Source of the DNA: Eledone cirrhosa
Lineage: Eukaryota
Reading direction: 5' to 3'
NCBI GenBank assembly: GCA_964016885.1
Contig: OZ024742.1
Location: 124,930,001 to 124,994,000 of the forward strand
DNA length: 64,000 bases
Below, in pieces: positions 17,421 through 54,482 of this stretch. A program made the translations under genes and the position numbers. Numbering within the stretch: the first letter of the stretch is position 1; each line of letters opens with the position of its first letter. A model generated the notes under the pieces. The model was not told where the DNA came from. It made no database searches and saw only the letters and a program-made list of their open reading frames with translations.

Positions 17421-17667
17421 TTACATCGTCAGAGCAAAGAATTGCAACACGGAAAGAGCGTTGAGAGGATACATTATAGTACTGAACTCTCTCCTTTGTT
17501 TCCGCTGATGGTGTATTTCGTTGGCAGACCATAATAATTACCCGACCTGCATTTCGCAGGTGATTTAGAAAGGTCTACTAGCATGTCTACGGAAAGGAAA
17601 AAGATGTCCCACAGTCACAGCAACGGCTGCACAAATCTATATGTGCAAATATTCATCGACACATATG

Positions 17668-17747
<80 letters not shown>

Positions 17748-17749
17748 TT

Positions 17750-17835
<86 letters not shown>

Positions 17836-17848
17836 CATATATATACAT

Positions 17849-20294
17849 ATTGTTATACTTTGGGAGGGTCATGTTGCCAATAAGAAACACACGCACCAGT
17901 TGCTTTCACTTCAACTTATTATATATTTATAAATTTATAAATTTACAAATCTACAAACTTATAAATTTCTGGTTGGTTGGTTGGTTGGTTCCACAACCAG
18001 ATAGTTGTTTATATATAGTCATAGTCCTTTCGTCACACACTCTGTGACCTCTTCAGTGACTGGGGATTCCTTTCTTTGTTTCTGTTCCTTTCCTTTCTTC
18101 TGTCCTACGCCATTTTGTTTCTGTGTGTGTGTTGTGTGCTCAGTTTGCGCATGCGCCACATCCGGGTGTCTGTGTGTGTTTGTGTTCATTTATCTATTTG
18201 TTTATTTATTTACATGTTGTTGGTTGGTTGTTTGTTCTATGTGTGTGTGTGTTTTCATGTTGTCCTCAATTGTAAATTGTGATGTTGCTGTTCCACTCAT
18301 ATTTTCTATTTAATTTTGGTTGTAATTCTTTTATGCTTACTGCCTCTGTAATTTGCCTAAACATTGCATCTTTTCTGTGTGTGGATTCTATTTTTATTTC
18401 TATGTTCTCTAATTTACCCTTGTGTTCTATCTTAGCATGTTGGTAGAGTACAGATGATTCTTTATTATCTTGAAGGTCTTGCCAGTGTTCATTTATCCGT
18501 TCCCCTATACTACGAGCTGTCTCACCTATGTACACTATATTTTTGTTTCTACATTGTCCTTCAGTACATCTTATGCTATACACTACATTTCTAGTTTTAC
18601 AGTTAATATCGGGGCTTATTTTACAGGTTATACATTTCTTATCTATACATGAGGGTCTTTGGAACGGGTATGTCTTGCTAATAAGTGTTTTTACGGAGGT
18701 ACCTGGTCTTTCTACTATCTTAATATTGAGTTTATGTTTATTTAGGGCCCTTCTAAATTTGTAGGCTAGTTCGCCTCTAGGGGTTGTATTGATGAACAGT
18801 AAACTCTGGTATTTATTGCTATCATACCATGAGTTTATTCTATTGGCCTTGTTCCTAGTTCTTTCTATTCCATTCCAAAATTTGCTCCTATACAAGGGGC
18901 AGGTCCCATTTATGTCATTATTTACCATTTTTTCCCATTTGGTTCTGGCTCCTCAATACACTCTGATTCTATCTCTCTGATTGTAGCCAGAGAACTGCAT
19001 ACGGTGGATGAAGTGTTGTATGTGTCTCTCTAGTTCTTCGGGGTTGCACATGCGGGACACATTTCTCATCACCCGTACCAAATACGCAATCAGTATGTTG
19101 ATTTTGGTATGGTCCGAAATGGCTGAGTTTCGGTGGATCAGATGTTTGGAAGTCATGGGTTTGGCATAATGGGAATGGAGGATTTGTTTTTGGTTGTTAA
19201 TGGTATCTAATCAGAGCTCTGTGTCTAGTACAAGTAATCGATGGTTGGGGTGTCTACTTGGGTAGTCTATAGTAACTCTAATGCTCCGGTGGATGGAGTT
19301 TGCTATTTGCTGGATGCTTTCCATTGTGTTTTTCTCTAGTTCCTGACTGTTCTCTAGTGGGGGTGTCTTAACTACGATGTTTATATCATCTACGTAGCGG
19401 GAGTACATTATCAGTGTTAAGCTGTCTTCTAATTGTTCTTTAAGTTTAAGTTTAAGTCTACTGTCCCACCATACCATGAATAAGTTAGCTATGTCGCCTG
19501 CAATGCTAACACCAATGGCTGCTCCTTCCTCTTGGGCATATCTTTTTCCATTAAATTTGAACATATGTTCCTTAAGGGTTAATTTTATGCTGGCCCCTAC
19601 CGCATGTGCAATCATTTTCTTCAGTTCATCGTGGTTTTCGGGTGTCTGTATGGCTCTGGTCCACCCGTTCCATCTATCTGTGTGGGTTTTCTTGGCCATA
19701 GAGGTAATGGTAGGTGGTCTGCCTCTTGCTGGTCTTGTAGGGCACAGGTTGCTAAGGTCATAAGTGTCTAGGTAACTATTACTATGTGTAAGCTTAAGTA
19801 GAAGTCCAAGCTCACTGGTATCAATCCCACGGAACTCAACCTTGCTCTCGCTGATCATTTCTACACATTTCTCCACAGCAAAATCCACGTCAATAGATGG
19901 ATACAGGGACACAACATCCATACTGCCTATTATGCAGTTTGTTAGGTCCCCAGATCGGTTACTCACGCCGATTCTGCTGAGGAGGTCCTCCGTGCTGTCA
20001 CATACATCTGGGGACATCTCAGTGATGGGGAGTATGATCAGGGAGAGGAAGTAGCACAGTCTGTATTTACTAGCAATGTTAGCTCCACAGACTGGCCGTG
20101 TTGGTGGTCCTTTTGTTGGGCTGGAAGTTGTTGGCAGTCCTTTTGTTGGGCTGCATTATATTCGTCCACATCACCATATGGGCATTGAGGGCTTTTTCTC
20201 TATCCTCATGCTCCTGTGGTGTTACCTCTCTTGTGTTAGTGATGTGGGGTTGCATTGCCTGGATGTAGTTTGGCAGGCTGTCAACCGACATTCT
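17849..20294 (-). mobile_element. Penelope-like element (Naiad-like), 5'-truncated pseudogenised copy
   Basis: RT motifs GSMDVVSLYPSID, QEEGAAIG, YSRYVDDI; GIY-YIG NVVYSIRC...YIGETARSIGERINEH; in-frame stops. 3' end lies in (TA)n. Closely related to 32071-35517. Confidence 0.92.
18017..18061 (-). ncRNA. Hammerhead ribozyme in the PLE 3' repeat
   Basis: AGTCA-CTGAAGA-G-GTCACA gagtg TGTGAC-GAAA-GGAC-TA-TGACT. Confidence 0.8.
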
Positions 20295-20295
20295 A

Positions 20296-20830
20296 TTATT
20301 TTACGTCTCTTATATTATTGTCCTGCAACCCCATGCATTGAACCACAATGTTATTAAGACAAAACCTATATATTTGCTAGCTTCGATATGCATTTGTATG
20401 TATATATATGTTACTAGATATAAATTCTTTATTATTATCTCCAAAATATTTCTCGAGCAATACTGGCCATGACTGCTGCTACGGTAGTAGGCTGGCCGCT
20501 GTCTTATTAACAACCCACTTTCCACCGATTGACCTCGACGTCACGTGTTCGATTCTTTTTGAATTTGCCACAGACAGAGAGGCAGTTATTTTCTCAATGG
20601 CTAGGAATTAAGTCCACGCTTTGCTATTTCCTATTCACTGATTTATTTTTTAATAAGCTTCCAGAGTCCTCGCTTTGCCTGGAAACTTATATGAGAATAG
20701 ACTTTCCTGATGACGGGATGATTCTCAACACCTTCTTCGGAAGATGTATCTACTCCATTCCAGAAACTAATTAGTTGGAAGTGATATTTTAGTAAGTAAG
20801 TTAATTTTATAATTTTCTTATTTTACGTCT

Positions 20831-20836
<6 letters not shown>
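20296..20836 (+). mobile_element. Retrozyme-like 522-bp monomer (family B) with 19-nt terminal redundancy
   Basis: TTATTTTACGTCTCTTATA at 20296 and at 20818. Contains an HHR and no credible ORF. 3' end runs into (TA)n. Confidence 0.7.
20701..20782 (+). ncRNA. Type-I hammerhead ribozyme (family B)
   Basis: Stem I ACTTTC/GGAAGT; CTGATGA; stem II GGGATG/CATTCC extended to a C(TTCG)G-capped hairpin, with a C.A mismatch at 10.1/11.1; GAAA; palindromic stem III ACTAATTAGT; GUU site. Confidence 0.75.
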
Positions 20837-20887
<51 letters not shown>

Positions 20888-21021
20888 AAGTGAGGTTTTT
20901 TTTTACAAAATGAAAAATAACCGAGGTGTCCTACACGAGTGAAAGTATAAAGAAAAAGAGATGAAATCGAAAATGCAACTGAAGTCTTATTTTTTAAAAA
21001 AATATATATATTTATTTGGTT

Positions 21022-21059
21022 CCTTTACCGGTTTCGCAGTTCTTCTGATTTTCAAAAGG
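21022..21059 (-). ncRNA. Hammerhead motif, family C mirror copy (G10.1 mutated to T)
   Basis: CCTT-TTGAAAA-TCAG aagaa CTGC-GAAA-CCGG-TA-AAGG. Confidence 0.6.
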
Positions 21060-21126
21060 TGAGTTGAGATGGAGGGTCTGTGGTTTTTCTCACATCTGAG
21101 ACCCTCAGACCCTCCATCTCAACTCA

Positions 21127-21164
21127 CCTTTTGAAAAGCAGAAGAACTGCGAAACCGGTAAAGG
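21127..21164 (+). ncRNA. Minimal hammerhead ribozyme with U3:A8 core variant (family C)
   Basis: CCTT-TTGAAAA-GCAG aagaa CTGC-GAAA-CCGG-TA-AAGG. All three stems pair; stem III is the palindrome ACCGGT. Confidence 0.75.
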
Positions 21165-21234
21165 AACCAAGTAAATATATATATTTTTTTTAAATAATAA
21201 GACTTCAGTTGCATTTTCGATTTCATCTCTTTTT

Positions 21235-21340
<106 letters not shown>

Positions 21341-22865: not shown

Positions 22866-22912
<47 letters not shown>

Positions 22913-22919
22913 TATATAC

Positions 22920-23391
22920 ACACACACAAGTACAATAACAAAAAACATATAAACTAAGATAGAATACAAAAACAAAAACTCATACACTCAAAGGCGAACA
23001 CACACACCAAACATTATACACACATGTAAACGCATGCGCAAGGACAGAGACAAGTATAAATAAATAAATAAAATAATAAAGGCGTAGACATTACAATACA
23101 ATAGGATGAAACATAGTAGTACCACTGATGATGTTGCAGATGTGCGACGAAAGAAGTTTGATAGACTATATATATTTTTATATCTGTATATTTAACCGTT
23201 GGTCAAACAAGGATAAATAAACATGGATTGCCAAATAAATTAACTATGGAGATATAAAAGATACAGAAGCGAAAACCAATCAAACAGTGTGTGTCTTTTG
23301 TTATTATTTCTGGAAATATTATGACAATATGGCCCTCCCCAAGTATAACAATATTTGTTTCGACACACGATTTCATACCAAATTCTTGCAA

Positions 23392-23398
<7 letters not shown>
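22920..23398 (+). mobile_element. 3' terminal repeat of a sister Naiad-like PLE subfamily
   Basis: GGCCCTCCCCAAGTATAACAATATTTGTTTCGACACACGATTTCA...TCTTGCAAAACAAAT matches 36970-37038; HHR at the equivalent position. A minus-strand relative lies at 25537-25700. Confidence 0.7.
23113..23169 (+). ncRNA. Hammerhead motif (Naiad sister subfamily)
   Basis: TACCA-CTGATGA-T-GTTGCA gatg TGCGAC-GAAA-GAAG-TT-TGATA; one stem I mismatch. Confidence 0.65.
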
Positions 23399-25213: not shown

Positions 25214-25232
25214 TATACACATATATATATAT

Positions 25233-25433
25233 GTAAGAGCTGAGTTTTATTGTAGTGCAATAAAGCAATGCAGATATGTTGATTTAAAACTACACTATCC
25301 ATAAGTGTTTTTTAACCTTCATATCATGTCTTCCTGTTTTATCTGATGAAAACACAAATATTATTGCATGATGATATTTGTTTTTGAAATGCGCATAATA
25401 AAATACATGGAACTCTTTTAAACATCTTTTGTT

Positions 25434-25438
<5 letters not shown>
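25233..25438 (+). mobile_element. Family A HHR element, second locus
   Basis: 25233-25277 is an inverted copy of the 966-1010 3' extension, joined through ATAT to a copy of 756-920. Flanked by (TA)n. Confidence 0.85.
25335..25405 (+). ncRNA. Minimal type-I hammerhead ribozyme (family A)
   Basis: Same fold as 816-886. Differences are confined to loop II (GCAT versus GTTT) and a U-G to U-A change that keeps stem II paired. Confidence 0.85.
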
Positions 25439-25492
<54 letters not shown>

Positions 25493-25725
25493 CCATATAT
25501 ATATATATCCATATATATATAAATCCATATATATATGTTATACTTGGGGAGGGTCATATTTGTGTAATTTTGCCAGAATTAATAACAGAACACACTCACT
25601 GTTTGGTTTGTTTTCGCTTCTGTGTCTTTTATATCGTTAATCTAATTTATTCGGTCCTCAATGTTGCCATTGACTGACCGACGGTCAAAAATAATACAGA
25701 TACAATATAGACACAATCACATATA

Positions 25726-25801
<76 letters not shown>

Positions 25802-26227
25802 TATATATACATATATATGCATATATATACATATGGATATATACGTATGGATATATATATATAAATCCATATAGCTAGGTAGGTAACTAATTAAAATTTT
25901 ACTAGAGCTTCAAAGTTTAACTAAAGCTTTTAAAACAATTTTGGATATGTATATATATGTATATATATATATATATATATACATAAATATATATATATAT
26001 ATAAATATATATATATATAAATATATATATATATATTTATATATATATATATTTCATTTCTCACTAAGAGTGAGAAATGAAATTTCGTTTTCATTTTGTT
26101 TTAATTTATCGTTTTCGGTATGCCTGACCGATTTAACTCACTCAATATGCAAATTAGGCTGCTCAGCCGTTAATTTTCATAAGGAAAGTATATACTTTCG
26201 AACGTTCAACTATCTGGCAGATGGGTA

Positions 26228-26272
26228 AACGGTGCTGATGATAGCTAACAAGCTTGAAACTAGTACATCGTT
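26228..26272 (+). ncRNA. Minimal type-I hammerhead ribozyme (family D, unit 1)
   Basis: AACGGTG-CTGATGA-T-AGCT aaca AGCT-T-GAAA-CTAG-TA-CATCGTT; 7-bp stem I; palindromic stem III ACTAGT. Confidence 0.85.
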
Positions 26273-26699
26273 CCTGTGTCAGTGTTGAACAAAAAGGTGA
26301 CGTGGTTGCCTTAACACCGTATGGCATAAATTCAGGCTGTTCAGTTTGTTTACAAACGAACAAAGCGACGTTATAATAAGCGCCGCTAAACTGATACGTG
26401 CATATATGTATGTGTACCTGTATGCATATGTATGTATATATGTATATGTATATATATATGTGCATGCTACTGTACGTCTGTATACATATATGTATGTACG
26501 TATACATGCATACTTACATTTAAGTAAGTGCCATACTAAGAGTGAGAAATGAAATTTCGTTTTCATTTTGTTTCAATTTATCGTTTTCGGTATGCCTGAC
26601 CGATTTAACTCACTCAATATGCAAATTAGGCTGCTCAGCCGTTAATTTTCATAAGGAAAGTATATACTTTCGAACGTTCAACTATCTGGCAGATGGGTA

Positions 26700-26744
26700 A
26701 ACGGTGCTGATGATAGCTAACAAGCTTGAAACTAGTACATCGTT
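26700..26744 (+). ncRNA. Hammerhead ribozyme (family D, unit 2)
   Basis: Identical to 26228-26272. Confidence 0.85.
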
Positions 26745-27171
26745 CCTGTGTCAGTGTTGAACAAAAAGGTGACGTGGTTGCCTTAACACCGTATGGCATA
26801 AATTCAGGCTGTTCAGTTTGTTTACAAACGAACAAAGCGACGTTATAATAAGCGCCGCTAAACTGATACGTGCATATATGTATGTGTACTTGTATGCATA
26901 TGTATGTATATATGTATATGTATATATATATGTGCATGCTACTGTACGTCTGTATACATATATGTATGTACGTATACATGCATACTTACATTTAAGTAAG
27001 TGCCATACTAAGAGTGAGAAATGAAATTTCGTTTTCATTTTGTTTCAATTTATCGTTTTCGGTATGCCTGACCGATTTAACTCACTCAATATGCAAATTA
27101 GGCTGCTCAGCCGTTAATTTTCATAAGGAAAGTATATACTTTCGAACGTTCAACTATCTGGCAGATGGGTA

Positions 27172-27216
27172 AACGGTGCTGATGATAGCTAACAAGCTTG
27201 AAACTAGTACATCGTT
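27172..27216 (+). ncRNA. Hammerhead ribozyme (family D, unit 3)
   Basis: Identical to 26228-26272. Confidence 0.85.
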
Positions 27217-27517
27217 CCTGTGTCTGTGTTGAACAAAAAGGTGACGTGGTTGCCTTAACACCGTATGGCATAAATTCAGGCGGTTCAGTTTGTTTACAAA
27301 CGAACAAAGCGACGTTATAATAAGCGCCGCTAAACTGATACGTGCATATATGTATGTGTACCTGTATGCATATGTGTGTATATATGTATATATATATATA
27401 TATGTGCATGCTACTGTACGTCTGTATACATATATGTATGTACGTATACATGCATACTTACATTTAAGTAAGTGCCATACTAAGAGTGAGAAATGAAATT
27501 TCGTTTTCATTTTGTTT

Positions 27518-27591
<74 letters not shown>

Positions 27592-28190: not shown

Positions 28191-28258
28191 AATTAAAATA
28201 AATTAAAATAAATAAGTCAAACATTTAAAATTTGGCTTCGTTTATTCCTGCTATATTC

Positions 28259-28308
28259 CTGCTAGATTTTGGTGGGAGCCATCTTTGGCTGTGACCTCTT
28301 CAGGCAGT
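28259..28308 (-). ncRNA. Hammerhead motif, probably inactive (GAAA mutated to AAAA)
   Basis: ACTGC-CTGAAGA-GGTCACAGCC aaagat GGCTCCCACC-AAAA-TC-TA-GCAG. Confidence 0.55.
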
Positions 28309-28906
28309 CCGAATTAGTGTGGTAGAGACGAGTACACATGTCGTTGGGGTCTTTAACTTTGTCAATACTCTGTTATGCCCAGTTCCTGGTTGGGTTGTTG
28401 TTTCTATGAGGAACTGGAATCAAATGAATTTAAACAAACGAATTTCAGGGTCAAAGGAATCCTCTCCTCCCATTGGTCAGTTGTGAGTACAAAAGTCTAT
28501 AGAAATTCTTTCTGGGGCGAGGCAATCTGTAGTGGTTGTTTTTGTTATTGTTAAGTACAACTGACCTCAATCCCTTATGTTGGTAGTAGTGTTGGTGCTG
28601 GGGTCAGATTTAAGTCCTGCTGCTGTTTATTTTAGAAGGACCTGTGTGTGTGTGTTGGCATCAATCCTGCCACCAACCATTTCTCTCGGTGGTTGGGGGT
28701 GCGGGGTGTTTGCCAAGCATCTGAATAAATAATAGGCAATAAGATGAAGGAAATAAAACATAAAATATAAAAAATAAAAAATAAATAATAAATAATAGAA
28801 TGAAAGGAAAAGTGAAAAGATTAAAAAATACGAATAAAATAAAGAAAAATAGAGTAAAATAAGATAAAATAAAATAAGATAGAATAAAATAAAGTCATAT
28901 AAGATA

Positions 28907-29072
28907 ATTGTTTCTACTTTAGGCACAAGGCCAGTAATTACCTAGTGCATTACTGGTACTTTTATTTTATCGACCTCGTAAGGATGAAAGGCAAAGTCAA
29001 CCTCGGCTGATTTGAACTCAGATCATAAAGGGACGTAACTATGCTGGAAAGCATGGCGTCCGACCCTCTACC
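28907..29072 (-). mobile_element. SINE inside the PLE 3' UTR (second copy at 29651-29812)
   Basis: AATTGTTTCTACTTTAGGCACAAGGCC...TACTGGTACTTTATTTTATCGACC...GATTTGAACTCAG. Confidence 0.8.
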
Positions 29073-31911
29073 TTAATCAAATAAGTAAACAAAAAAAATG
29101 ATAAAATGGTAGAAGGAATAAGATGATTAAAAGAATAAAATAAGATAATCAAATAAAATGTGTGTGTGTAATAACCAATCTCAAAGTTAGAAAGATTTGG
29201 AAGATCCTCTCCTCCCATGGTCAGTTGTGAGAGCATTCCTCAGTCAAAAGTCTATAGAAATTCTTTTTGAGGTGAGGCGATCTGTAATGTTTGTTTTTGC
29301 TATTGTTATGTACACCTGACCTCTACCCTTATGTTGGCATTGGTGTTGGTGCTGCGGTCAGCTTAAGTCTTACTGCGACTGATTTTAGAAGAGTCTGTGT
29401 GTGTGTGTTGGCATCCATCCTTCCACTATTTCTTGTGGTGTTGGTGGTCGTGGTGGTGGTGGTGTGTGTGTGTGCGGGGGGGGGGGGGGGGGGGGGTCCA
29501 AGCATATCAGGGAATAAAAGGCAATAAAATCAAGAGAACAATAGAATGACATGAAAAGGAAAAGACAAAAAATAAGAATAAAATAAAGACATAAAGAAGA
29601 AAGTAGAGTAAAATGAAATGAAATGATGTAAAATAAAATAAAATAATATAATTGTTTCTACTTTTGGCACAAGGCCAGCAATTACTCAGTGCATGACTGG
29701 TACTTTATTTTATCGACCCCGTAAGGTTGAAAGCAAAGTTAACCTCGGCGGGAATGGAAAGGGTTATAACTCTATGCATCAAAGCATGGCGTCTGACTCT
29801 CTACTGATACTGAAGCAAATAAGTAAGCAAAAATATGATAAAACGGTTGAAGGAATAAGATGATAAAAGAATAAAATAAGATATTCAAATAAAATGTGTG
29901 TGCGTTATAATCAATCTCAAAGTTAGAAAGATTTGGAAGACGTTGGCCAAATTAGAAAGGCTGTGTCAGAATCAATCTCTAGACTATCATGGTGTGTTGT
30001 GTATTTGTATTAAGAGCAGGTGAGATAATGGTGGAGTGTAATAGCCCATAATTCGGGTGTGGAAATCCGGAAATGCGGAGGACTACAGTTCCTATTTTGG
30101 CATGGAGCTCATATTCGTGTCTTTCAACTCACATCCTTCCAAGCACACACGCAGAAGCACAGGTCCAGTGGCATCCTAGGGCCCCCTCCACACACATACC
30201 CACATACATACACACACACACACCCACACACGCATACACACACGTACACATACATACACCCACCCACATGCCCACGCGCACCTACCCACCCGCACACACA
30301 CATATAAGTATCTGTACATGTACAATCCTAAATAACAGTATCCATGTATGGACATATGCATGGTATGTGTTGTCACAGGCGTCGATCGGGGCTGTTGTAT
30401 GGTGGGGCTGCTGTCCTTGAAGCTAGAGGGAAGTTCCCATCCAAATGTTTTGTTCTTATCCGTATAACTTGAGGAAGGTCCCGGCCCTGATGTATTTGCG
30501 CGTCCCGGATGGGTTCCTATGGCTTGAGAGGAGTTCCAACCTACTGTGTTCTTACTGTTCATATGGCTTGAGGGAGGTCCGGCCCAGAGGTGTCAACATG
30601 TTCTAGAGAATTCCCTATAGCTTGGGGGGAGTTCACATCCCAGCGTGTTGTTACTGTCCATATAGCTTGAGGAAGGTCCCGGCCATGAGGTGTCTACATG
30701 TTCCAAAGAAGTCGGTTCTGAGATTTATCAGGTGGCTTCCACCTCTTAGTATCTCGATGGTCTCGCTCAGACATACGTGTTTGCAGATGTCAGATCCCTC
30801 TTTATCAGGTGGTACTTTCCTGATTATGGACCAGGCTAGAGAGTATGGGGTCCTGTCCAGGTTAAGCTTCCAGATCAGGTCGAAAAGAGCCGTACTTTCC
30901 TTTTGAACTCCTTGTTGAAGGAATGGCGATGATTATACCAACGGTCTTTAAAGCTCGTTGATGTGGCTCCTATGTAAAGGTGTTCAGAGTTGGGGTTTTT
31001 ACTCTACATCCGTATATTAGGTTCTTCCTAAGGCATTCATTACTAAGGGGGCATAATTCGGGGTTTCTGCAGTTGCAGAAGGTGGCCGAACTCTGTGTGC
31101 TTAGTGTGGGGTTCCCGTTACGTGTTACATGGTGGTACTACCCCGGTCCCGGTGGGGGGGGGGGGGGGTCCCTGAGTATGTTTGAGTTTCTTGGGTTGGC
31201 ACTGGGTCCACCCTTCTCTACTTTCACACGGTTCTGCTGGGTGCTTATATTGCCAGCTTCTGGTTGTGTGTGGTTTTTAAGCCTACTCCTGTTGATGCCA
31301 ATTATGTGTTGGGCCAGATTTATAGTGGTAGATTACGAGAACTTCACAGTGCATCTGTTGAAGATCTTGTGGTATCTATGGTCCCTTGGGAAGCATTTAT
31401 CAAGTGCTCCAAAGAATGATCGGGCCAAGCTGTTCTTTAGGGCCGCTGAGTAGGGTAGGTTGTACCACGTGATTTTTCTGCGTCCACTCCTATGTGGGTG
31501 GGTTGAGGGCGCCGTGGGCTGTTGGAGAGAAATGGTGGGAGGATAGATGCCAACACGCACACACACAGTTCATTCTAAAATAAACAGCAGCAGGTCTTAA
31601 ATGTGACCCCAGCACCAACACCACTACCAACATAAGGGTAACGGTCAGTTGTACTGAAAAATAACAAAAACAACCACTACAGATTGCCTCGCCTCAGAAA
31701 TAATTCCTATAGACTTTTGACTGAGGAATGTTCTCACAACTGTCAATGGGAGGAGAGGATGTCCTTTGACGCTGAAAATCGTTTGTTTAAATTCATATGA
31801 TTCCAGTTCCTCGTAGAAACAACAACCCAACCATGAACTGGGCATAACAGAGTATTGACAAAGTTAAAGACCTCAACAACATGTGTACTCATCTCTACCA
31901 CACTAATTCGG

Positions 31912-31966
31912 ACTCCCTGAAGAGGTCCCAGCCAAAGATGGCTGTCACCGAAATATATATAGCAGT
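31912..31966 (+). ncRNA. Hammerhead ribozyme in the inverted PLE 3' repeat
   Basis: ACTCC-CTGAAGA-GGTCCCAGCC aaagat GGCTGTCACC-GAAA-TATATA-TA-GCAGT; palindromic stem III ATATATAT; one stem I mismatch. Confidence 0.7.
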
Positions 31967-32012
31967 AATAAACGAAGCCAAATTTACAATAAACAACCAA
32001 CATATACTCAAA

Positions 32013-32074
<62 letters not shown>

Positions 32075-32243
32075 TTATACTTTGGGAGGGTCATGTTGCC
32101 AATAAGAAACACACGCACCAGTTGCTTTCACTTCAATTTATTATATATTTATAAATTCATAAATTTACAAATCTACAAACTTATAAATTATAAATTTCTG
32201 GTTGGTTGGTTGGTTCCACAACCAGATAGTTGTTTATATATAT

Positions 32244-32288
32244 AGTCATAGTCCTTTCGTCACACACTCTGTGACCTCTTCAGTGACT
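32244..32288 (-). ncRNA. Hammerhead ribozyme in the PLE 3' repeat
   Basis: Identical to 36775-36819. Confidence 0.8.
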
Positions 32289-32516
32289 GGGGATTCCTTT
32301 CTTCGTTTCTGTGCCTTTTCTTTCTTCTATCCTACGCCATTTTGTTTCTGTGTGTGTGTTGTGTGCTCAGTTTGCGCATGTGCCACATCCGGGTGTCTGT
32401 GTGTGTTTGTGTTCATTTTTCTATTTGTTTATTTATTTATTGTTGGTTGGTTGTTTGTTCTATGTGTGTGTGTGTTTTCATTTTGTCCTGTGTGTGTTTT
32501 CATTTTGTGTGTGTTT

Positions 32517-35130
32517 TCAATTGTAAGTTGTTTGTTCTATGTGTGTGTGTGTTTTCATTTGTCCTAAATTGTAAGTTGTGATGTTGCTGTTCCACTCATA
32601 TTTTCTATTTAATTTTGGTTTTAATTCTTTTATGCTTACTGCCTCTGTAATTTGCCTAAACATTGCGTCTTTTCTGTGCATGGATTCTATTTTTATTTCT
32701 ATGCTCTCTAATCTACCCCTGTGTTCTATCTTAGCATGTTGGTAGAGCACAGATGATTCTTTATTATCTTGGAGGTCTCGCCAGTGTTCATTTATTCGTT
32801 CCCCTATACTACGAGCTGTCTCACCTATGTACACTATATTTTTGTTTCTACATTGTCCTTCAGTACATCTTATGCTATACACTACATTTCTAGTTTTACA
32901 GTTAATATGGGGGCTTATTTTACAGGTTATACATTTCTTATCTATACATGAGGGTCTTTGGAACGGGTATGTCTTGCTAATAAGTGTTTTTACGGAGGTA
33001 CCAGGTCTTTCTACTATCTTAATATTGAGATTATGTTTATTTAGGGCCTTTCTAAATTTGTAGGCTAGTTCGCCTCTAGGGGTTGTATTGATGAACAGTG
33101 CACTCTGGTATTTATTGCTATCATACCATGAGTTTATTCTATTGGCCTTGTTCCTAGTTCTTTCTATTCTATTCCAAAATATGCTCCTATACAAGGGGCA
33201 GGTCCCATTTATGTCATTATTTACCATTTTTTTCCCATTTGGTTCTGGCTCCTTTATACACTCTGATTCTATCTCTCTGATTGTAGCCAGAGAACTGCAT
33301 ACGGTGGATGAAGTGTTGTATGTGTCTCTCTAGTTCTTCGGGGTTGCACATGCGGGACACATTTCTCATCACCCGTACCAAATCCGCAATCAGTATGTTG
33401 ATTTTGGTATGGTCCGAAATGGCCGAGTTTCGGTGGATCAGATGTTTGGAAGTCATGGGTTTGGCATAATGGGAATGGAGGATTTGTTTTTGGTTGTTAA
33501 TGGTATCTAACCAGAGCTCTGTGTCTAGTACAGGTAATCGATGGTTGGGGTGTCTACTTGGGTAGTCTATAGTAACTCTAATGCTCTGGTGGATGGAGTT
33601 TGCTATTTGCTGGATGCTTTCCATTGTGTTTTTCTCTAGTTCCTGACTGTTCTTTAGTGGGGGTGTCTTAACTACGATGTTTATATCATCTACGTAGCGG
33701 GAGTACATTATCAGGGTTAAGCTGTCTTCTAATTGTTTATTACGTTTTTGTTTAAGTCTACTGTCCCACCATACCATGAATAAGTTAGCTATGTCGCCTG
33801 CAATGCTAACACCAATGGCTGCTCCTTCCTCTTGGGCATATGTTTTACCATTAAATTTGAACATATGTTCCTTAAGGGTTAATTTTATACTGGCCCCTAC
33901 CGCATGTGCAATCATTTTCTTCAGTTCATCGTGGTTTTCGGGTGTCCGTATGGCTCTGGTCCACCCGTTCCATCTATCTGTGTGGGTTTTCTTGGCCATT
34001 GAGGTAATGGTAGGTGGTCTGCCTCTTGCTGGTCTTGTAGGGCACAGGTTGCTAAGGTCATAAGTGTCTAGGTAACTATTACTATGGGTAAGCTTAAGTA
34101 GAAGTCCCAGCTCACTGGTATCAATCCCACGGAACTCAACCTTGCTCTCGCTGATCATTTCTACGCATTTCTCCACTGCAAAATCCACGTCAATAGATGG
34201 ATACAGGGACACAACATCCATACTGCCTAATATGCAGTTTGTTAGGTCCCCAGATCGGTTACCCGCGCCGATTCTGCTGAGGAGGTCCTCCGTGCTGTCA
34301 CACACATCTGGGGACATCTCAATGATGGGGCGTATGATCAGGGAGAGGAAGTAGGACAGTCTGTAGTTACTAGCAATGTTAGCCCCACAGACTGGTCTTG
34401 TTGGTGGTCCCGTGACAGGGTCCCAGCCCGTTTTATGGTCTTTTCGAAGCCCATACAACGCCGGCACGTCATTGTTCCAGGCCTGGAAGTTGTTGGCAGT
34501 CCTTTTGTTGGGCTGTATTATATTTGTCCACATCACCATATGGGCATTGAGGGCTTTTTCTCTATCCTCATGCTCCTGTGGTGTTACCTCTCTTGTGTTA
34601 GTGATGTGGGGTTGCATTGCCTGGATGTAGTTTGGCAGGCTGTCAACCGACATTCTGCCAGACTTGTCTGTTGGAAAACATGCTATCTCTCCATTACGTG
34701 AGCGCTGCATGAGCTTACGCAAGCCATTTGCAGATTCTTCTCCCAGTTGCTGGGCCTCTATTCTATTATGATTCTTGCTATACTGTTCTATAATATTTCT
34801 AAGTTCGGATTTAGCTATACTAAATTGTGCTTCTGTTTGTTCATCGACCTGCGACGGCAACTGCGTGCGTTTGTTAAATGGCAAAGTCGTGGCGTGGACT
34901 CGTCGTAGGTCGAATGATTTATCGGAGGGGTTATAAAACGGAGAGTTCCAGGCTGCTGCTTTATGTGTACTAGTGCTATTATTATTGTTAGTTGTGTTAT
35001 TTCTATTTCTATTTCCACCAGCAGCCTCAGCTTCATGGTTGTTTCTATGTCTCTCATAATTACTCCTGTCTCTTTCGACTGGCTCAATGTTGTTATCTAC
35101 CCTATTTTGTGTGTCGTGTGTTCGTCTTGG
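32517..35130 (-). pseudogene. PLE RT-GIY-YIG polyprotein, split by a 1-nt homopolymer frameshift at about 33228
   Basis: The 555-aa ORF (PTDKSG, PPTRPVCGA, GSMDVVSLYPSID, YSRYVDDI) continues upstream without stops to about 35130 (...FDLRRVHATTLPFNKR). T7 here versus T6 in the 18.9-kb copy shifts KWEK/MVNND into the 236-aa Cys-rich GIY-YIG ORF. Confidence 0.88.
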
Positions 35131-35517
35131 TTATTCTCTTTGTCCTTAGTCTCCCATCTCCTTTTCTTTTTTTTTAATCCTATTACTTTCTCTTATTTCT
35201 CTGATTTCTGTGCTACTGTCATTACTTGTTTTCTGTGTCTGTGTGTTTGTTAAGATTGTGGTGGTGGTGAGAGGCATTGAATGCGTGTGTGTTGTTGTTG
35301 TTGATGTGTGTTGTTGTTGATGTGTTTTGTTGTTGTCTCCGTGTGTGTGTTATCGTTGTTGTGTGTGTTGTTATTGTTGTTTGTGTCTGCGTGTCTGTTG
35401 TTGTTGTATCTGGGTATGTTGCTATTGTTGTTGATGTGTGTGTTGTTGTTATTGTTGTCTCCGTGTGTGTTATCGTTGCTGTGTGTGTTGTTATTGTTGT
35501 TTGTGTCTGCGTGTCTG

Positions 35518-37047
35518 TGGAAAGCATCCAGCAAATAGCAAACTCCATCCACCAGAGCATTAGAGTTACTATAGACTACCCAAGTAGACACCCCAACCAT
35601 CGATTACCTGTACTAGACACAGAGCTCTGGTTAGATACCATTAACAACCAAAAACAAAACCTCCATTCCCATTATGCCAAACCCATGACTTCCAAACATC
35701 TGATCCACCGAAACTCGGCCATTTCGGACCATACCAAAATCAACATACTGATTGCGGATTTGGTACGGGTGATGAGAAATGTGTCCCGCATGTGCAACCC
35801 CGAAGAACTAGAGAGACACATACAACACTTCATCCACCGTATGCAGTTCTCTGGCTACAATCAGAGAGATAGAATCAGAGTGTACAAAGGAGCCAGAACC
35901 AAATGGGAAAAAGTGGTAAATAATGACATAAATGGGACCTGCCCCTTGTATAGGAGCAAATTTTGGAATAGAATAGAAAGAACTAGGAACAAGGCCAATA
36001 GAATAAACTCATGGTATGATAGCAATAAATACCAGAGTGTAATGTTCATCAATACAACCCTAGAGGCGAACTAGCCTACAAATTTAGAAAGGCCCTAAAT
36101 AAACATAATCTCAATATTAAGATAGTAGAAAGACCTGGTACCTCCGTAAAAACACTTATTAGCGAGACATACCCGTTCCAAAGACCCTCATGTATAGATA
36201 AGAAATGTATAACCTGTAAAATAAGCCCCCATATTAACTGTAAAACTAGAAATGTAGTGTATAGCATAAGATGTACTGAAGGACAATGTAGAAACAAAAA
36301 TATAGTGTACATAGGTGAGACAGCTCGTAGTATAGGGGAACGAATAAATGAACACTGGCGAGACCTCCAAGATAATAAAGAATCATCTGTGCTCTACCAA
36401 CATGCTAAGATAGAACACAGGGGTAGATTAGAGAGCATAGAAATAAAAATAGAATCCATGCACAGAAAAGACGCAATGTTTAGGCAAATTACAGAGGCAG
36501 TAAGCATAAAAGAATTAAAACCAAAATTAAATAGAAAATATGAGTGGAACAGCAACATCACAACTTACAATTAAGGACAAAATGAAAACACACACACACA
36601 TAGAACAAACAACCAACCAACAATAAATAAATAAACAAATAGAAAAATGAACACAAACACACACAGACACCCGGATGTGGCACATGCGCAAACTGAGCAC
36701 ACAACACACACACAGAAACAAAATGGCGTAGGATAGAAGAAAGAAAAGGCACAGAAACGAAGAAAGGAATCCCCAGTCACTGAAGAGGTCACAGAGTGTG
36801 TGACGAAAGGACTATGACTATATATATAAACAACTATCTGGTTGTGGAACCAACCAACCAACCAGAAATTTATAATTTATAAGTTTGTAGATTTGTAAAT
36901 TTATGAATTTATAAATATATAATAAATTGAAGTGAAACAACTGGTGCGTGTGTTTCTTATTGGCAACATGACCCTCCCAAAGTATAACAATATCGGTTTC
37001 AACACACGATTTCAGATAAAGAATCTTGCTAAACAAATTCAGAAACG

Positions 37048-37050
<3 letters not shown>
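35518..37050 (+). mobile_element. Inverted 3' arm of the Naiad-like PLE (RT C-terminus + GIY-YIG + 3' repeat + about 59-nt extension)
   Basis: Reverse complement of 32071-33623; continues 36992-37050 before (TA)n. Confidence 0.93.
36775..36819 (+). ncRNA. Hammerhead ribozyme in the PLE 3' repeat
   Basis: AGTCA-CTGAAGA-G-GTCACA gagtg TGTGAC-GAAA-GGAC-TA-TGACT. Confidence 0.8.
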
Positions 37051-39520: not shown

Positions 39521-42500
39521 GCTTTCTTTATTAACTACAAGGGTTTACATAAAGTAGACATTAAGGACAATACAGCACGGTACAAATGGGCATTTCTGCG
39601 TGTAACAAAAACAAAAACAGAGGATGTAACAAAAAAATAACAATGAAAAATTCCTCAATAGGGGGGAGACTTCCGAGGGACATTTGTGGAGAAAGCCCAT
39701 TAAAAGGCCACAGTGACCCTGACCACCAGGGCAAGTGCCCTCTCCCGGTTTTCCACCTTTAATTTACAGACACATACTCAGAGTAGGCCCATTCACTCGG
39801 GCCATACTTGCCTCTCTCACCCATCTTTCAACAAAATGCTGGGAAGAGAGCACTTCCCTCTCTACCCTGATTTTCCTTTTCAAATGAAATTTGTAAAAGT
39901 TAATCAGGGCATCACCGAAGAGATAAGTGCTCGTCTTCAGCCCTTTCAAACGTGTCCACCATACTATCTTTTTCGCAATGGCCACCAGACAGATAAAAAC
40001 TGCCTGCCCTTCCCGACTAAAGGAAGAGAGCGGGGCAATCCTCACGATGGATTCAGCTGATAGCTGGATCCGTCCTACACATGACAGTAGGTGTTCGAGA
40101 TAAACCCACAAGTCAGCAATGCTCGGACAGTGGACGAGTACGTGTAGGGCGGTTTCGTCGCCCTGCGTGCATCTCGGACAGGCCCGGCTGACGGCACCTC
40201 CATGCCTGTAGAGTTTATCCCGGACTGGCAAAGCTCCTCGGTAGCACTGCCAGGCCAGGGATTTCTGGAAGATGTCCATAGGACCCAGCCCGAAAATTCT
40301 TCCGAAGAGATTGGCTAGTTGATTTTCGTCCACGCCTAGAGTTTTTCCAAGTACGTCGTCACTCTTCCCCTCCACTAATCTTCTATAGAACGCCAAGGTG
40401 GAGTTTCCTCCGATCACATTGCTCGATTGGCCGTGGGCTGTGAGCGTCTGAAGACATTCCAGTCTCCAAGCGCTCCCTCTCGGTCTACGCTTGACCCAGG
40501 ACTGCAGCTCCGTCAAGGAGACGAGCTGGGGAAAGACGCGTCTCGCAAACGGCGATCACACCTGATCACCGTCGAGGAAGAGGTGGAGATGTCGTAGCCT
40601 GAGCCCGTGTCTGCGCATCATCAGCCACGGCATGCCCAGCCCTCCACGTAGCGGCTGTTGACAGCGGAGGGACCGTCTGACCATCGGAGCGCGTCCCTTC
40701 CTCAAAAAGCGAAAGAGCAAACGCTCAAGCGCAGTCAGGCGGGGCTTAGGACAAGGTACGACGGTCAGGCGGTAGTAGATGACGGACGCGAAGTACGCGT
40801 TAGCCACCTCCGCTCGACCTTTTAGGGATAACTTCCTCTCCGCCCAATTCTGGGTGAGAGAAGCCACCCTGCTCGTCACCTCGTCCCAGTTTGTGTCCGT
40901 CTGGAGGTCCGGACCGAACCAGACCCCTAGTAGTTTAACCGGTCCGTCCGTCCAGCGCCCGACGACGCTGTTGGGCGGCATGGACCGGCCTCTCCAGGTG
41001 GCGACCTGCAGACCCACTGACTTTTCCTGGTTGATCATTGCTCCTGTCACCGCTTCGTATTCTCTTAATGTAGTGCCGATCGCCTCGATGTGTTTGGCGT
41101 TCGACACCACTACTGTGACAAGGTCCGCAAATGCCGAAAGGTGACCGTTCACTCTCACCACAGAGCAGATGTCGCTGTGCATGGCAGCGATCCAGCCTCT
41201 GAAGACGGGCCCAAAGTCAGCCGCTCTGACGACAGCCGCTAGGTAACGGTGGTCGACCATATCGGAAGCTTTTGACTGATCTAAATTGATCAAGGACCCA
41301 TCCGTGCCAGGTTCCCTAGCTACCCTCTCTACGATGTATCGCATGATGTGGATGTTGTCGTGGATGGATCTGTCGGGAATGGCGCATGTCTGCGCCTCTC
41401 CCACCAGACCACCAACGACAAGCGCCAACCTCTTTGCTAGCCCCTTGGCTAAAATCTTGAACTCTGTGTTTAGCAGAGTTATGGGCCTGAAATTATCTAT
41501 GTTATCCCCCTTGTTCGGATCCTTTCTCAGCAGCACCACAGCTCCTCGGCTCACAAAGCTGCTAATTTTCCCGTTCTGTTGCCAGTTGCAGTAGACGTCC
41601 GCCAAATAGGCCGCCGAACAATCTCTGGCATCTGTTCATCAAAGTTCATAGGGCATACCATCCAAACCAGGCGATTTACCCCTTGTGCAGCCAGTCATCG
41701 CCTCCCGTACTTCAGCGGCTGTTATCGGCTTTTCGCAACACTCCGCCTCAGTGACAGAGAGCCGCGGCAGTCCGTCGAGGTAGACACTAAAGTCCATCCC
41801 TCGATCCGGCCCGCCGCTGCCTCCGAACAGCTGTGCGAAGTTATGCTGAACAGCTTCACACATTTGCCCAGGATCGAGTAGCATACGCCCGTCGTGGTCC
41901 AGCATAGACCGGATCGTGGCTTTGTTGCCACGACGCGCCTCCGCTACTCGGGCCCATTGAACGGCTTTCTTCCCCTCGTGGCTGCGAGCACGCACCCTAG
42001 CTCTGACAACGCAGCCTTCGTGCTTTGCATTGAAGAATTGGTCAAGGGCCAATTTCGCCGCAAGTACATCGGTCGGGATGACTTTGCTAAGCGCCTCGTC
42101 TAATTTTCTAACTAGTTCTCCCTCTACTCTATTTTTCTCTATTGCTAAGGCCTTACTAAACCCAATGGACTCTATTTTAATCGCTCTTTGCAGAGCATAC
42201 CACCACTTGCTGTTGACCATGGCCCTCGTCACCGTCAACGCCCGCTTAACTAGTTCGCTAATCCGGTCTCTGTAGGCCTTGCACGCTGTTAAGGACCCGT
42301 CTATGAAGCCTATCTAAGTCAAGCACACAGATCACGAATTTGTGGTCCGTGTAGCTGACTATCTTGAATTATGGACAGCCTATGCTAGACCTATCTATTT
42401 CCCTACAAAATAGTCTATCTAGATATGATCTGGATGACCCTATGCGATTTGTCCAAGTCCACATTGGCACATTCGGGAAATCCAATCGGTACCTGTCAGA

Positions 42501-45145
42501 CAGTTCAAAACGCCTGAGCAGGTTGGTGAGGCTCTTGCCCCCTCCTCCCTTATCCGCTAATCCCACACAATCCCAGCGTGCATGTAAGATTCGTTCCAGT
42601 CGCCCACTAAGACTAAAGAGCGGGACGTTCTAAGAAAGGTCTCCAGACGCCGGAAGAAATCAGGCCGCCCTGCTCCTGTTGGAACATAGACGGCCACTAG
42701 CCTGAAAGCTTGCCCGTCTTCACTGGTCACGTCCAGCACCACCAACTTACCTTCTGGGTCCAGGAAGATAGCCCATATGGCGAGATCCAAACCTGTCCGA
42801 AAAAGAACAGCAAATCCTCCCCCGACCCAGGACGGCTGGGAGATGCGTACACACCGTAGCTGCCGAAGATCGGTGCGAAGGCCCGTGCTTCGGAGATTCT
42901 GGTCTCGCTGATGGCCATTACATCTATGTTTAGTGGCCTGATGTCGCTGAGCATGTGGCCCTGCTTCCATGACGACCCTAAGCCACGCGCATTTATGCTG
43001 CCTATTCTGAGTTAGGTCATGTTGAAATGGAGTGGAAAAGATGGGAAAGACCACTTACCTTACTTCTCTGCTTGTGGCCTCCTCCGGAAGGTTGTCCTTA
43101 TAAATCCTCCTAGAGAGTGCTTGTGGGAAGTCTCCGATGTCTTTGTGGAATTTTTGTTTTAGTGCCGTGTACGTTTTCTGTGTGATGCTAGTGATTTGTA
43201 TGTGTGGAAGTGGTGTGAACTTTTGGGTTTTTGTGTAGTCTTTTTCTGTGATGCTGGTGTTGTGTTGGATGTAGCGTAATAATTGGTTGTTGTTCAAATT
43301 TATTGCTGTGTAGTGTGTATCGTTTTGGTTGTTTTGTGTTGTTTGCGTTTGTTGTGGGTTTGTTCCTGTTTCGCTTTTTGGTGACTTTTGTGGTGTTGGT
43401 GATGGTGGTGTTGGGGTTAATGATGGTGATGGTATTGGTGTTTGTGGTGATGGATTGGTGATGCTGGTGTGGATGGTGGCATATCTCTCCTAACTTTTTT
43501 GTTTGATAGTTTATTTGTTTCCCTCTGTATTATGTTTTTGGATGGGGAAGGATGTAGATTTGTCTTTTTTGGTTTCTTTTCCTTTTTTTCTTTTTTCCTG
43601 ATACCGTTTCCCACTCCTCGTCGTCACAATCTGTCTCCAGTTGTGATAGGTCGGGGAGTGGAAAATCCTCCACATGCGTTGGTTTTGGTTGTTGCGTGGT
43701 GGACGGTGTAGGCGCTGGTGCTAGTCCTTGCGCGTTGGGTGGTGGTGGTGTTGGTTTTGCTACTGTTGCTGGGGTTGTTGCTGTTACAGTTGCTTCTGGT
43801 GTTGCTGCTACAGTTGTTGCTGCCATTTCTGCTGCTGGCGGTGTTGATGGTTGAGTCACTGAGGTGGGTAAGAGAGGTGGCCTCAACCTTTTAGCCTGAG
43901 GGCAGAAAGCCCTTAGGTGGGTTCCTTCACCACAAACGACACACCTAGGCCTTCTGCCCTCGACGATTACGGTGAGGTTGCTGCCCTCAATGCTTGTTTG
44001 GTCCGCTTGGATCAGGAGTTCCATCCCAGATCCGACCTGTTCTCCTGCTTTTTTTTCGCTATTTCGATTATCTTGGTGTTGACCTCGATGCCGGAGAGGA
44101 CGGCATCCATTAGCCAAGGAATTTCGATGGCTGGTGGAACGTGGGTCACCCTGATCTTCACGAGTCTCTGGCCACAATAGCTTGGGACGAGTGTGAAGTC
44201 GTCACTTCTTAATGGGGCCATGGAGTGTTCTCTGGCCTCCTGTGGTGTTTCAAAGAACACATCCACGGTTCCATATTTCTGCCCACGTCTGATGTGGTTT
44301 TTTTTTGCCCACACATGTCCCAAAGCTTTTTGGATTTGGGAGTCGGATGCCCGTTCCACTCGGCGCGATTTTATGTTAATCGTCCGATAAGACACGGTGC
44401 ATAGGCGCCGATGCTCCATTTTATTAGGTGTGTGTGTGGGGGGGGGGGGGCTGACCTTGTACCCATCTTTCTTTACCATTCTTTTGACTTCTTCTAATTC
44501 CTCCTGAGTTACCTGGAATGCTTCGCACTTTTTTGCTACTCTGGCAAAAGACAGGGTGGTTTTCTTAATTTCATTGTTGCTGTTGTTGTTATCGTTATTT
44601 TTGTTATTGTTAATTTTAGTTTCAGTTGTGGTGGTGGTGGCGTCAGTAGTGTTCGCTGTGGAAGAGTTCATTTTGGGTGAATTCATTTCGATATCACGAG
44701 ATAATTTATTTATTTCTGTTATTTCTGTTGTCGCTGTGGTGGTGGTGGGGGGGGGGCGGCTTCAACACCTGCAGTCATTGGTAATGGCGGGAAATGAATG
44801 TCTGCCTGAGACGAATTTAAAATATTGCTACTGCTTATATTTTTAGTGTTGGCAAACGTAGAATATTTACAATGGTGGTGTCGGTGTGAGGTGTTAGTTT
44901 GTGAGGAAGGTGTGACTCTGAGTCGTCCATGATCTTTTCAAAGAAAAATCTTTTGTTTGATAATTATAAAAGTTTAAATTTGGGGCTCAAGGCCCCAATC
45001 TTTTTGAGTGTCCTTTTCAGATAACAATGTATGTGCACTTATATACAGTTAACAATAAAAATTTTCCATAAATGGCAATTTTAAACAACTGAAAATAACA
45101 AACCTTTGCGGAGCTCACGATAATACGATTTACTATGTAGTTCGC
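39521..45145 (-). mobile_element. Tx1/L1-clade LINE, copy 1 (near full length, decayed)
   Basis: ORF1 44686 to about 43050 with CCHC RPRCVVCGEGTHLRAFC. ORF2 from 43020: APE endonuclease (SINARGL, LVGDWN, SYLDR, TDHK), RT (KSPGLDG, FRPITLLNTEFKIL; QGCPLS segment deleted), C-terminal CPRC...HVLVHC. (AAT)n on both sides. Confidence 0.9.
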
Positions 45146-45153
45146 CAATAATC

Positions 45154-45191
<38 letters not shown>

Positions 45192-45207
45192 TATAATAAT
45201 AATAATA

Positions 45208-45382
45208 ATTGTTTCTACTTTTCGGCACAAGGCCAGCAATTACCCAGTGCATTACTGGTACTTTATTTTATCGACGCCGTAAGGATGAAATGCAAAGTTA
45301 ACCTCGGCGGGATTTGAACCCAGAATTGCAAGGGCCGTAACTCTATGCGTCAAATCATGGCGTCCGACCCTCTACCGATACT
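45208..45382 (-). mobile_element. SINE copy abutting (AAT)n
   Basis: Same family motifs; the 3' end AGAAACAATT runs into (ATT)n. Confidence 0.8.
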
Positions 45383-45399
45383 AAATAATAATAAAAATA

Positions 45400-46437
45400 T
45401 AACATCCCTCCACCCGAAACTGACAACCATGTTCAATGTCTGCTTGATGTCAGGTGAGGTACCAGAGTGGTTGACAAAAGGTACCACAGTTCTGGTAATG
45501 AAAGACCGAACCAAGGGTAATGATGTTACCAAATATACACCTATCATATGTCTGTCCGTAATGTGGAAATTGTTAACAAGCATTGTGTCTGAGGAAATCT
45601 ACCATCACCTCCACATAAACAACTTGTTACCGGACGAATACAAAGGATACCGAAAGAAGTCCCGTGGTACAACGGACCAGTTACTTATTGATACGATGGT
45701 AATGAGGAATTGCAGGGGGAGACACACTGGTCTTGCCATGGGATGGATAGACTACAAAAAGGCATTCGATATGGTAACTCATTCTTGGATAACTAAAAGC
45801 CTAGAGATCTTCAAGGCGACATATAACATCAGACAGTTGTTGAGCAAAAGTATGAAGTCCTGGAAAACAGAGTTAACAACGGGTGGAGAATCCTTGGGAG
45901 GCGTGAAGATCAAGAGAGGTATCTTCCAGGGAGATAGTTTGTCCCCTCTGTTGTTTGTCCTTGCCCTGATCCCTCTGAGCATTATACTGCGAAAAGTGAG
46001 AGCAGGATACAAGTTGTGGAAGGGAGAGCTTACCATCAATCACCTCCTCTTCATGGACGATCTTAAGCTCTTCGGGAAGAGTGAGAAGGAGTTGGATGTG
46101 CTTGTTGACACTGTCCGTATTTTCGTCAATGATATATGTATGCAATTTGGTATTAGTAAGTGTGGAGTCCTTGTGATGAAGGGGAGTACATTGAGCAGAG
46201 GCAACGGAATCCAGGTACCAACAGGTGAGATGATAAAGGAAATTGATACTGAAGAAGGGTACAAATATGTAGGTCTTCTGGAGGCTGATGACATCAAGAA
46301 CAAAGAAATGAAGGAATTGATAAGATCTGAATACATTCGGAGAATAAGGAGCATTTAAAGTCACATCTGAACAGTAGGAATGCCATAAGTGCAATACATT
46401 CCCGAGCTGTGTTTATTATTAGGTACAGTGCGGGAAT
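45400..46437 (+). mobile_element. R4/Dong-clade RT fragment
   Basis: WIDYKKAFDMVTHSW, RGIFQGDSLSPLLF, HLLFMDDLKLF; same family as 58563-60640. Confidence 0.88.
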
Positions 46438-54452: not shown

Positions 54453-54482
54453 AATAATAATAATAAGAAGAAGAAGAATAAT

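Follow-up and report, generated by a model that had tools for sequence, protein, structure and literature searches.

A chimeric insertion joining a Penelope-like element head-to-head to a retrozyme-like repeat in Eledone cirrhosa, and a recurring class of cross-family joints

Introduction

How do two mobile sequences that share no homology come to lie head to head in (TA)n DNA, with a single nucleotide between them? The question is raised by a locus at 17663-20883 of a 64,000-nt stretch of Eledone cirrhosa contig OZ024742.1 (the window, to which all coordinates refer). There, a (TA)n tract is followed by a minus-strand arm of an autonomous Penelope-like element (PLE, family P), a single A, a plus-strand arm of a repeat that we call family B, and a second (TA)n tract. 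A first-pass annotation, made from the letters alone, had read this chimera as a footprint of PLE machinery copying retrozyme RNA, and as a sign that two separate templates, rather than fold-back, give rise to inverted arms. How the inverted arms and tails of PLEs form, and which enzyme moves retrozymes, are named as open questions in passages of PMC8557442, PMC7229834 and PMC7761336. A genome with thousands of young insertions makes arm and tail formation, as well as retrozyme mobilisation, countable. We set the chimera against a sample of insertions from the same genome.

Structure of the chimeric locus

The two target remnants are the (TA)n tracts at 17663-17849 and 20833-20883. The 5'-truncated P arm (17850-20294, minus strand, untailed 3' end pointing left) matches the 3' portion of the minus-strand element at 32072-35517, in blocks 94-98% identical. 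By sequence comparison it ends at ...CCGACATTCT, where the 32-kb copy continues GCCAGAC, exactly as first annotated, and the break falls directly past the codons of the DKSG motif. The B arm (20296-20836, plus strand, untailed 3' end pointing right) is 541 nt long, that is one 522-nt unit plus a 19-nt repeat of the unit start, running into (TA)n. No (TA)n separates the arms, which agrees with the original description; the single A at 20295 is accounted for by neither P nor B and is either an untemplated filler or the last relic of a TA target. The sequence preceding the start of a B unit is usually ...TTTTC, so that the joint can be read as one filler A or as a 4-nt TTCT overlap plus 2 nt, and the T-A-T at the joint could itself be a TA relic. 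The absence of (TA)n at the joint alone proves little, because fewer than three TA units are also present at 21 of the 79 5' ends of non-inverted B insertions. Neither outer end of the chimera carries a tail, and both lie exactly at the start sites of their families against TA.

The P arm carries a private rearrangement at 20111-20120 (minus strand, read from the sequence), 175 nt from the joint: 72 nt were lost and 10 nt gained, copied from just beyond (net -62), with microhomologies of 4 and 3 nt. The arm is 98-99% identical to its 39 closest relatives, none of which aligns over this segment gap-free. Both arms show about 1% private divergence (19 substitutions in 2001 columns for P, 4 in 522 for B; p 1.0); differences from the column majority number 22/2001 and 10/522, respectively. 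Two of 77 unselected B ends and six of 26 P copies are equally close to the window arms, and this closeness reflects subfamily as much as age. The age match of the arms also discriminates little, because most B insertions are similarly young (arm-to-arm mean 1.9%).

An assembly artefact merging two repeat copies is highly unlikely. The region is repeat-dense, and none of the contigs or reads compared spans the joint: in four runs against 19500-21100 (three with short contigs, one with RAD-seq from another sample) no record crosses the joint or shows its absence. Against such a merger, the partners have no homology for mis-joining, both arms hold private variants, the assembly contigs reach 443 Mb, and 11 more joints of this kind were found (see below). 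The left flank is single-copy. Used as a query, the junction returned only B copies, with no second P/B joint among the 40 scored of 3609 candidates. This one locus is suggestive, not decisive, and its origin is unprovable from its sequence.

A separate self-inverted insertion of family E (20884-21240) lies past the right TA tract. Further self-inverted or nested TA-targeting insertions occur in the window at 578-1012 (family G), 1869-2267 (H), 25231-25453 (G) and 28191-32015 (C), together with ends resembling a second PLE family, P2, at 22886-23398 and 25537-25728. Several copies of LINE-type elements with broken endonuclease and RT frames occupy 39764-56671.

Family P

Within the P arm, all on the minus strand, we recognised a minimal type I hammerhead motif predicted by motif scan (18015-18066, CUGAAGA core at 18056-18050), part of a C-terminal GIY-YIG endonuclease with a CX4CxxC linker and CCHH-type residues (18266-18952; PF01541, 23.3 bits against a cut-off of 22.6), and part of the RT core, broken here by stops and frameshifts (19211-20155; RVT_1, E 1e-4, under the curated cut-off). 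The linker reads CIDKKCITC, with C..C within the core and two His further on. The hammerhead core lies about 200 nt from the 3' end and the same motif is predicted in 12 library copies. Four intact relatives (L175, L176, L181 and L190; L numbers denote sampled sequences) each encode RT followed by a terminal GIY-YIG in a single uninterrupted frame (1114 aa or longer), so that P is a young family and perhaps still an active one. In the 3.0-Gb genome, 11,901 untailed and 10,039 tailed P ends lie exactly against TA, the two fixed 3' ends being 59 nt apart.

P had been called Naiad-like. Naiads are characterised in the relevant part of PMC8557442 by an N-terminal endonuclease, a DKA motif and the absence of a canonical hammerhead, so that the C-terminal GIY-YIG, the hammerhead and the DKSG motif of P rule this label out. 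Nor is P a Hydra PLE, a group with no CCHH, a CxCX5C linker and DKT. Its single ORF with RT and C-terminal GIY-YIG, its CX2-5CxxC linker, CCHH motif, hammerhead, inverted copies, tail and (TA)n targets fit the canonical EN+ architecture of Neptune and Nematis, to which P is provisionally assigned by features rather than by a tree. Despite the C-terminal endonuclease, motifs A and B of the RT are separated by about 130 aa (L181:1-3345; window 33217-35130, minus strand), which would be long against the canonical spacing. A lengthened A-B region (IFD) is linked, in the part of PMC8557442 that treats it, to clades with an N-terminal endonuclease such as Naiad. An Atlas search with the P RT returned unnamed eukaryotic RT clusters only, and a search for its motifs in one supplement of PMC8557442 gave no match.

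The window also holds a self-inverted P copy, with a long minus-strand arm ending untailed (32072-35517) and a short plus-strand arm (35518-37050) that ends in a 59-nt tail (36992-37050). The short arm differs from its long arm by 8 substitutions in 1472 positions and from the P arm of the chimera by 37-40. The chimera was first described as having the same geometry as this copy: the orientation of the arms does agree, but the tails do not, with a 59-nt tail there and none in the chimera.

Family B

The initial search for B gave 2177 candidates, the top relatives being 97-98% identical. The family consists of tandem 522-nt units, sometimes four or more in a row, with a longest ORF of 87 aa, and it shows no similarity to P or P2 except for AT-rich words. 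Its ends next to TA lie at unit position 20 (1321 exact untailed ends, compared with 1 for the control) or at 137-141 (474, counted with one pattern); the optional tail is thus 121 nt long, and in the chimera the tail sequence lies inside the unit (about 20316-20435) and is not terminal.

Each unit contains a predicted type I hammerhead (20701-20782 in the chimera, plus strand), with stem I pairing 20701-20706 with 20777-20782, CUGAUGA at 20707-20713, a long stem II, GAAA at 20763-20766, a palindromic stem III CUAAUUAG and predicted cleavage after GUU at 20776. The core letters are conserved in 162-166 of 166 units and stem II covaries, with two-sided changes in 39 and 22 units. Rfam at its gathering score did not match this hammerhead, and it does not form in the minimum-energy fold of the monomer; when hammerhead and start-site regions were folded, two of five stretches reached z of about -2.3, so that structure is not decisive. 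A tandem unit with one such hammerhead each, non-coding, without LTR and low in GC, B qualifies by sequence criteria as a putative non-LTR retrozyme. A second retrozyme-like family, A, is represented in the window at 26063-27525 by three tandem 472-nt units that are 99% alike and have a hammerhead core each.

B bears the footprints of PLE-type copying, namely TA targets, two fixed 3' ends and inverted arms in 87 insertions, and it is likely that some PLE copies it. The claim that PLE-type machinery copies this retrozyme is thereby upheld, and these footprints are a firmer sign of it than the chimera is. As B has no ORF, the PLE protein must be borrowed; no ORF-bearing element with B ends was found among the sampled B loci. 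The protein that copied B may be that of P or of another family, the same genome containing other ORF-bearing TA-targeting PLEs (P2 and K), and the chimera does not single out P.

Tails and arms of inverted insertions

The genome sample comprised 431 sequences (1.93 Mb, overlaps included); it was anchored on chosen ends of families B, P, X and D, mostly from contig C1, and is therefore non-random. Sequences were cut at TA tracts and the ends clustered. At least 15 TA-targeting families have two fixed, nested 3' ends 34-121 nt apart, and a loose pattern found a hammerhead-like motif 60-270 nt upstream in 12 of 20 library families. Where both ends of a same-family inverted insertion could be typed, 271 insertions combined one tailed and one untailed end and only 6 had like ends (283 mixed before removal of look-alikes). 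The P copy at 32-37 kb obeys this one-tail rule, its right arm carrying the tail and its left arm none. The chimera breaks it, and so lacks the pairing of a tailed with an untailed end that marks an ordinary self-inverted PLE.

Are the arms of ordinary inversions made by fold-back of a first cDNA, or from separate templates? Of 82 B inversions, 37 have arms of which neither is included in the other, and the tailed arm is the shorter one in 24 of 38 P inversions, including the 32-37 kb copy; fold-back of the first cDNA is excluded in these cases. To this extent the early argument against fold-back stands, but the general claim of two separate templates for inverted arms is not supported. B arms of one insertion differ by 1.9% on average, versus 8.0% between loci (77 loci); pooled over 41 loci, units differ by 1.4% when they belong to the same arm and by 2.0% when they belong to opposite arms; and in young B insertions (L002, L005, L140, L221, L029) both arms mostly carry the same rare haplotype. 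Moreover, P ends outnumber B ends about ninefold, and yet the partner of a B arm is again B in 87 insertions. The arms are thus not drawn from a common pool: normal arms are usually of one haplotype and two different templates are the exception. In the B inversions L007 and L012, and in the older L156 and L233, the arms differ at shared variants while the tail rule is kept; as units inside one arm also differ (L014), a mixed multimeric transcript could explain these four. The simplest reading would be two priming events on one RNA or on sibling units, one per start site, which agrees with the two start sites and the use of both strands seen in vitro (PMC11167929).

Joints between families

The first-pass annotation had advised a search for other heterologous head-to-head joints, and this search revealed a recurring class. 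Adjacent pairs of different families within 60 nt were classed by orientation and by the presence of TA between them, leaving out the chimera locus and SINEs (one family here, which we take to be a SINE). The TA-free joints comprised 11 head-to-head, 9 head-to-tail and 1 tail-to-tail, the TA-separated neighbours 2 head-to-head, 49 head-to-tail and 125 tail-to-tail. Head-to-head pairs thus make up 11/21 of the TA-free joints versus 2/176 of the TA-separated neighbours (Fisher p 8e-11), with the proviso that the 60-nt limit may under-count TA-separated head-to-head neighbours. The 11 joints are found in L214 (X/B), L244, L259 (P/C), L265 (D/P), L324, L339, L342, L359, L379 (P/Q) and, twice, L419; the survey of ends added two complex cases, L383 (D with the ORF-bearing family K) and L021 (M/B). 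Relative to the 415 same-family TA-free head-to-head joints, or to the 277 fully typed ones, cross-family joints amount to 3-4%.

Several candidates were set aside. SINEs were involved in 8 of 20 TA-free cross-family head-to-head joints, several of them nested, and all 8 were dropped. At L075 TA lies between the partners, as it does at L221 and L222, whose ends appeared to be of the same type; at L061, L142, L146, L012, L361, L384, L408, L414 and L430 other DNA or short TA separates them. L196, which mimics a head-to-head joint, is nested, a family A tandem inside a family F arm (160-815) flanked by a 13-bp target-site duplication, which indicates that such elements make duplications, invisible in (TA)n.

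The class bears directly on whether two separate insertions were fused later, either because B entered a TA tract at the 5' end of P (or the reverse) and the tract was lost, or because the inner arms of neighbouring inverted insertions were deleted, perhaps from fragile palindrome centres. Insertions are indeed densely stacked in shared TA tracts, with 187 cross-family neighbours having TA between them, and the TA between separate insertions can be short or absent (L071, L155, L337, L347); at L071 just ATATAT is left. The two untailed ends of the chimera, unlike those of 271/277 one-event inversions, also suit a fusion, which predicts random end types. But deletion predicts that tail-to-tail joints should be the commonest and head-to-head the rarest, and the reverse is seen: head-to-head precursors are rare (2/176), yet they would have given the largest TA-free class (11/21), and TA-free tail-to-tail joints are almost lacking (1). 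Furthermore, the losses at six clear TA-free head-to-tail joints (3, 8, 27, 34, about 200 and 328 nt) are mostly below 35 nt, which in most cases would not suffice to delete an entire inner arm. We consider later fusion, in either form, rather unlikely for the chimera. Most of the cross-family class likely represents two cDNAs that were primed simultaneously and joined at their 5' ends.

End types point the same way. Typed by hand, 13 cross-family joints gave 7 mixed, 4 with two tails, 1 with two untailed ends and 1 unclear; the 7 mixed to 5 same differ sharply from the 271 to 6 within families (p 2e-5) and are compatible with two free choices of start site. Such independence is also accounted for if two synchronous insertions at two different TA tracts had their cDNAs joined 5'-to-5', with a bridging deletion, inversion or translocation as in human L1. 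The anatomy is that of an L1 bridge as reported in the part of 10.1101/2024.08.27.596794 that describes it, where a pair of 5'-truncated elements meet at their 5' ends and each carries a poly(A) tail. Against a two-site origin, large germline rearrangements would seldom persist at about 4% of inverted insertions, and at L379 collinear halves of one older repeat lie on both flanks, in a flank-continuity test of low power that was positive for 1/7 cross-family and 3/48 same-family joints. We regard a bridge between two sites as unlikely. As for the age of the arms, 10 cross-family joints were not significantly closer in arm age than 116 TA-separated neighbours (p 0.18).

Short templated jumps close to the joint, as at 20111-20120, were also seen at the same-family inversion joints L002 and L119 and at L214, L359 and L383. 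They raise the thought that one RT simply switched template to antisense B RNA or DNA, or folded back, and same-orientation joints such as L064 appear to show jumps as well. We find this scarcely credible for the chimera: a switch leaves unexplained that the end of the second partner coincides with the start site of its own family against TA, and fold-back cannot introduce unrelated sequence. At L064 itself (reverse strand, about 3150), P2 (about 68% identical to P) is fused to a B copy of like orientation without an intervening TA tract, stopping about 20 nt beyond its own hammerhead at a short TA-like stretch; this joint is either a template switch or an insertion with deletion.

Discussion

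We propose, with a probability of roughly 0.55, that the chimera consists of two cDNAs that were primed independently and linked by their 5' ends during a single event at one (TA)n site, two different RNAs having been reverse-transcribed from nicks on opposite strands of that target. P and B, like a dozen other TA-targeting families, end at either of two fixed points. Normally, one complex would use both start sites, on one RNA or sibling units, with one site per strand, which would yield arms of the same family with one tailed and one untailed end. In roughly 4% of the inverted insertions, priming would instead involve two RNAs that were loaded independently, each choosing its start site freely, so that families mix and the tail rule lapses. 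The 5' ends of the cDNAs would then be end-joined with an overlap or filler of 0 to a few nt, here one A, and a 1-nt filler is within the range of same-family inversion joints. A one-event origin is supported by (i) the ends at start sites against TA, (ii) the like private divergence of the arms, (iii) the 1-nt filler and (iv) the templated jumps nearby. As the free choice of start sites suggests separately loaded complexes, the chimera is no proof that the P protein copied B.

Put generally, a PLE inverted insertion would be the work of two RTs, each serving one target strand and one of the two start sites, as a rule on a single RNA, and a few percent of events would co-integrate unrelated RNAs head to head, protein-free hammerhead retrozymes without PLE homology among them; taken as a whole, we judge this reading evenly balanced between right and wrong. 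If it is true, chimeras record PLE-driven retrozyme mobilisation directly in the genome and offer a way of shuffling PLE and ribozyme modules. The chimera is a variant of PLE and retrozyme biology with an analogue in L1, and its value lies in the genome-wide pattern that it exposed: a near-strict one-tail rule in at least 15 families, the exclusion of simple fold-back, a footprint-bearing retrozyme and recurring chimeras are all countable, and from each a precise expectation follows for the in vitro PLE assay that already exists. Within the literature covered (PMC8557442, PMC11167929, PMC7761336 and PMC10191854, among others), a tail at one end is described qualitatively. In the parts of the literature covered, we found no cross-family PLE chimeras, no counted tail rule and no retrozyme tails or inversions; older papers on Penelope structure may hold such models.

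P closely resembles the canonical PLEs with a C-terminal endonuclease described in the structural part of PMC8557442: RT followed by GIY-YIG, a CX2-5CxxC linker, a hammerhead near the 3' end, (TA)n targets, and an inverted 5'-truncated copy with a tail often at one end only. Unlike in that account, as far as this part of it goes, the one-tail rule is counted here (271 vs 6) and includes non-coding families, the tails measure 34-121 nt, and the arms sometimes come from different families. In the in vitro work on PAc Poseidon, the PLE protein, a predicted dimer, cuts both strands and extends each of them, and two internal RNA start sites bound the tail (PMC11167929, sections on the reaction). 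These sections report neither a strand difference in start sites nor inverted or mixed products, whereas our genomic data imply that the start sites are shared out, one per arm.

B, for its part, is like the metazoan non-LTR retrozymes, which consist of tandem units without coding capacity, each bearing a single type I hammerhead, and whose mobilisation by PLEs has been proposed from co-occurrence and pLTR homology (relevant passages of PMC7229834 and 10.64898/2026.07.22.740005). It differs from known retrozymes in having no homology to P or P2, but a tail, inversions, a TA target and a physical joint to a PLE. Finally, the chimera is comparable to the antisense chimeras and two-L1 bridges of human L1, in which one RNA is copied from each end of a break and the two copies are linked 5'-to-5' (as set out in parts of PMC13174262 and 10.1101/2024.08.27.596794). 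L1 uses an enzyme of another family, and its target-site duplications, which would be invisible in (TA)n, prove single events; moreover, the arms produced by classic L1 twin priming do not overlap, whereas PLE arms share their 3' region.
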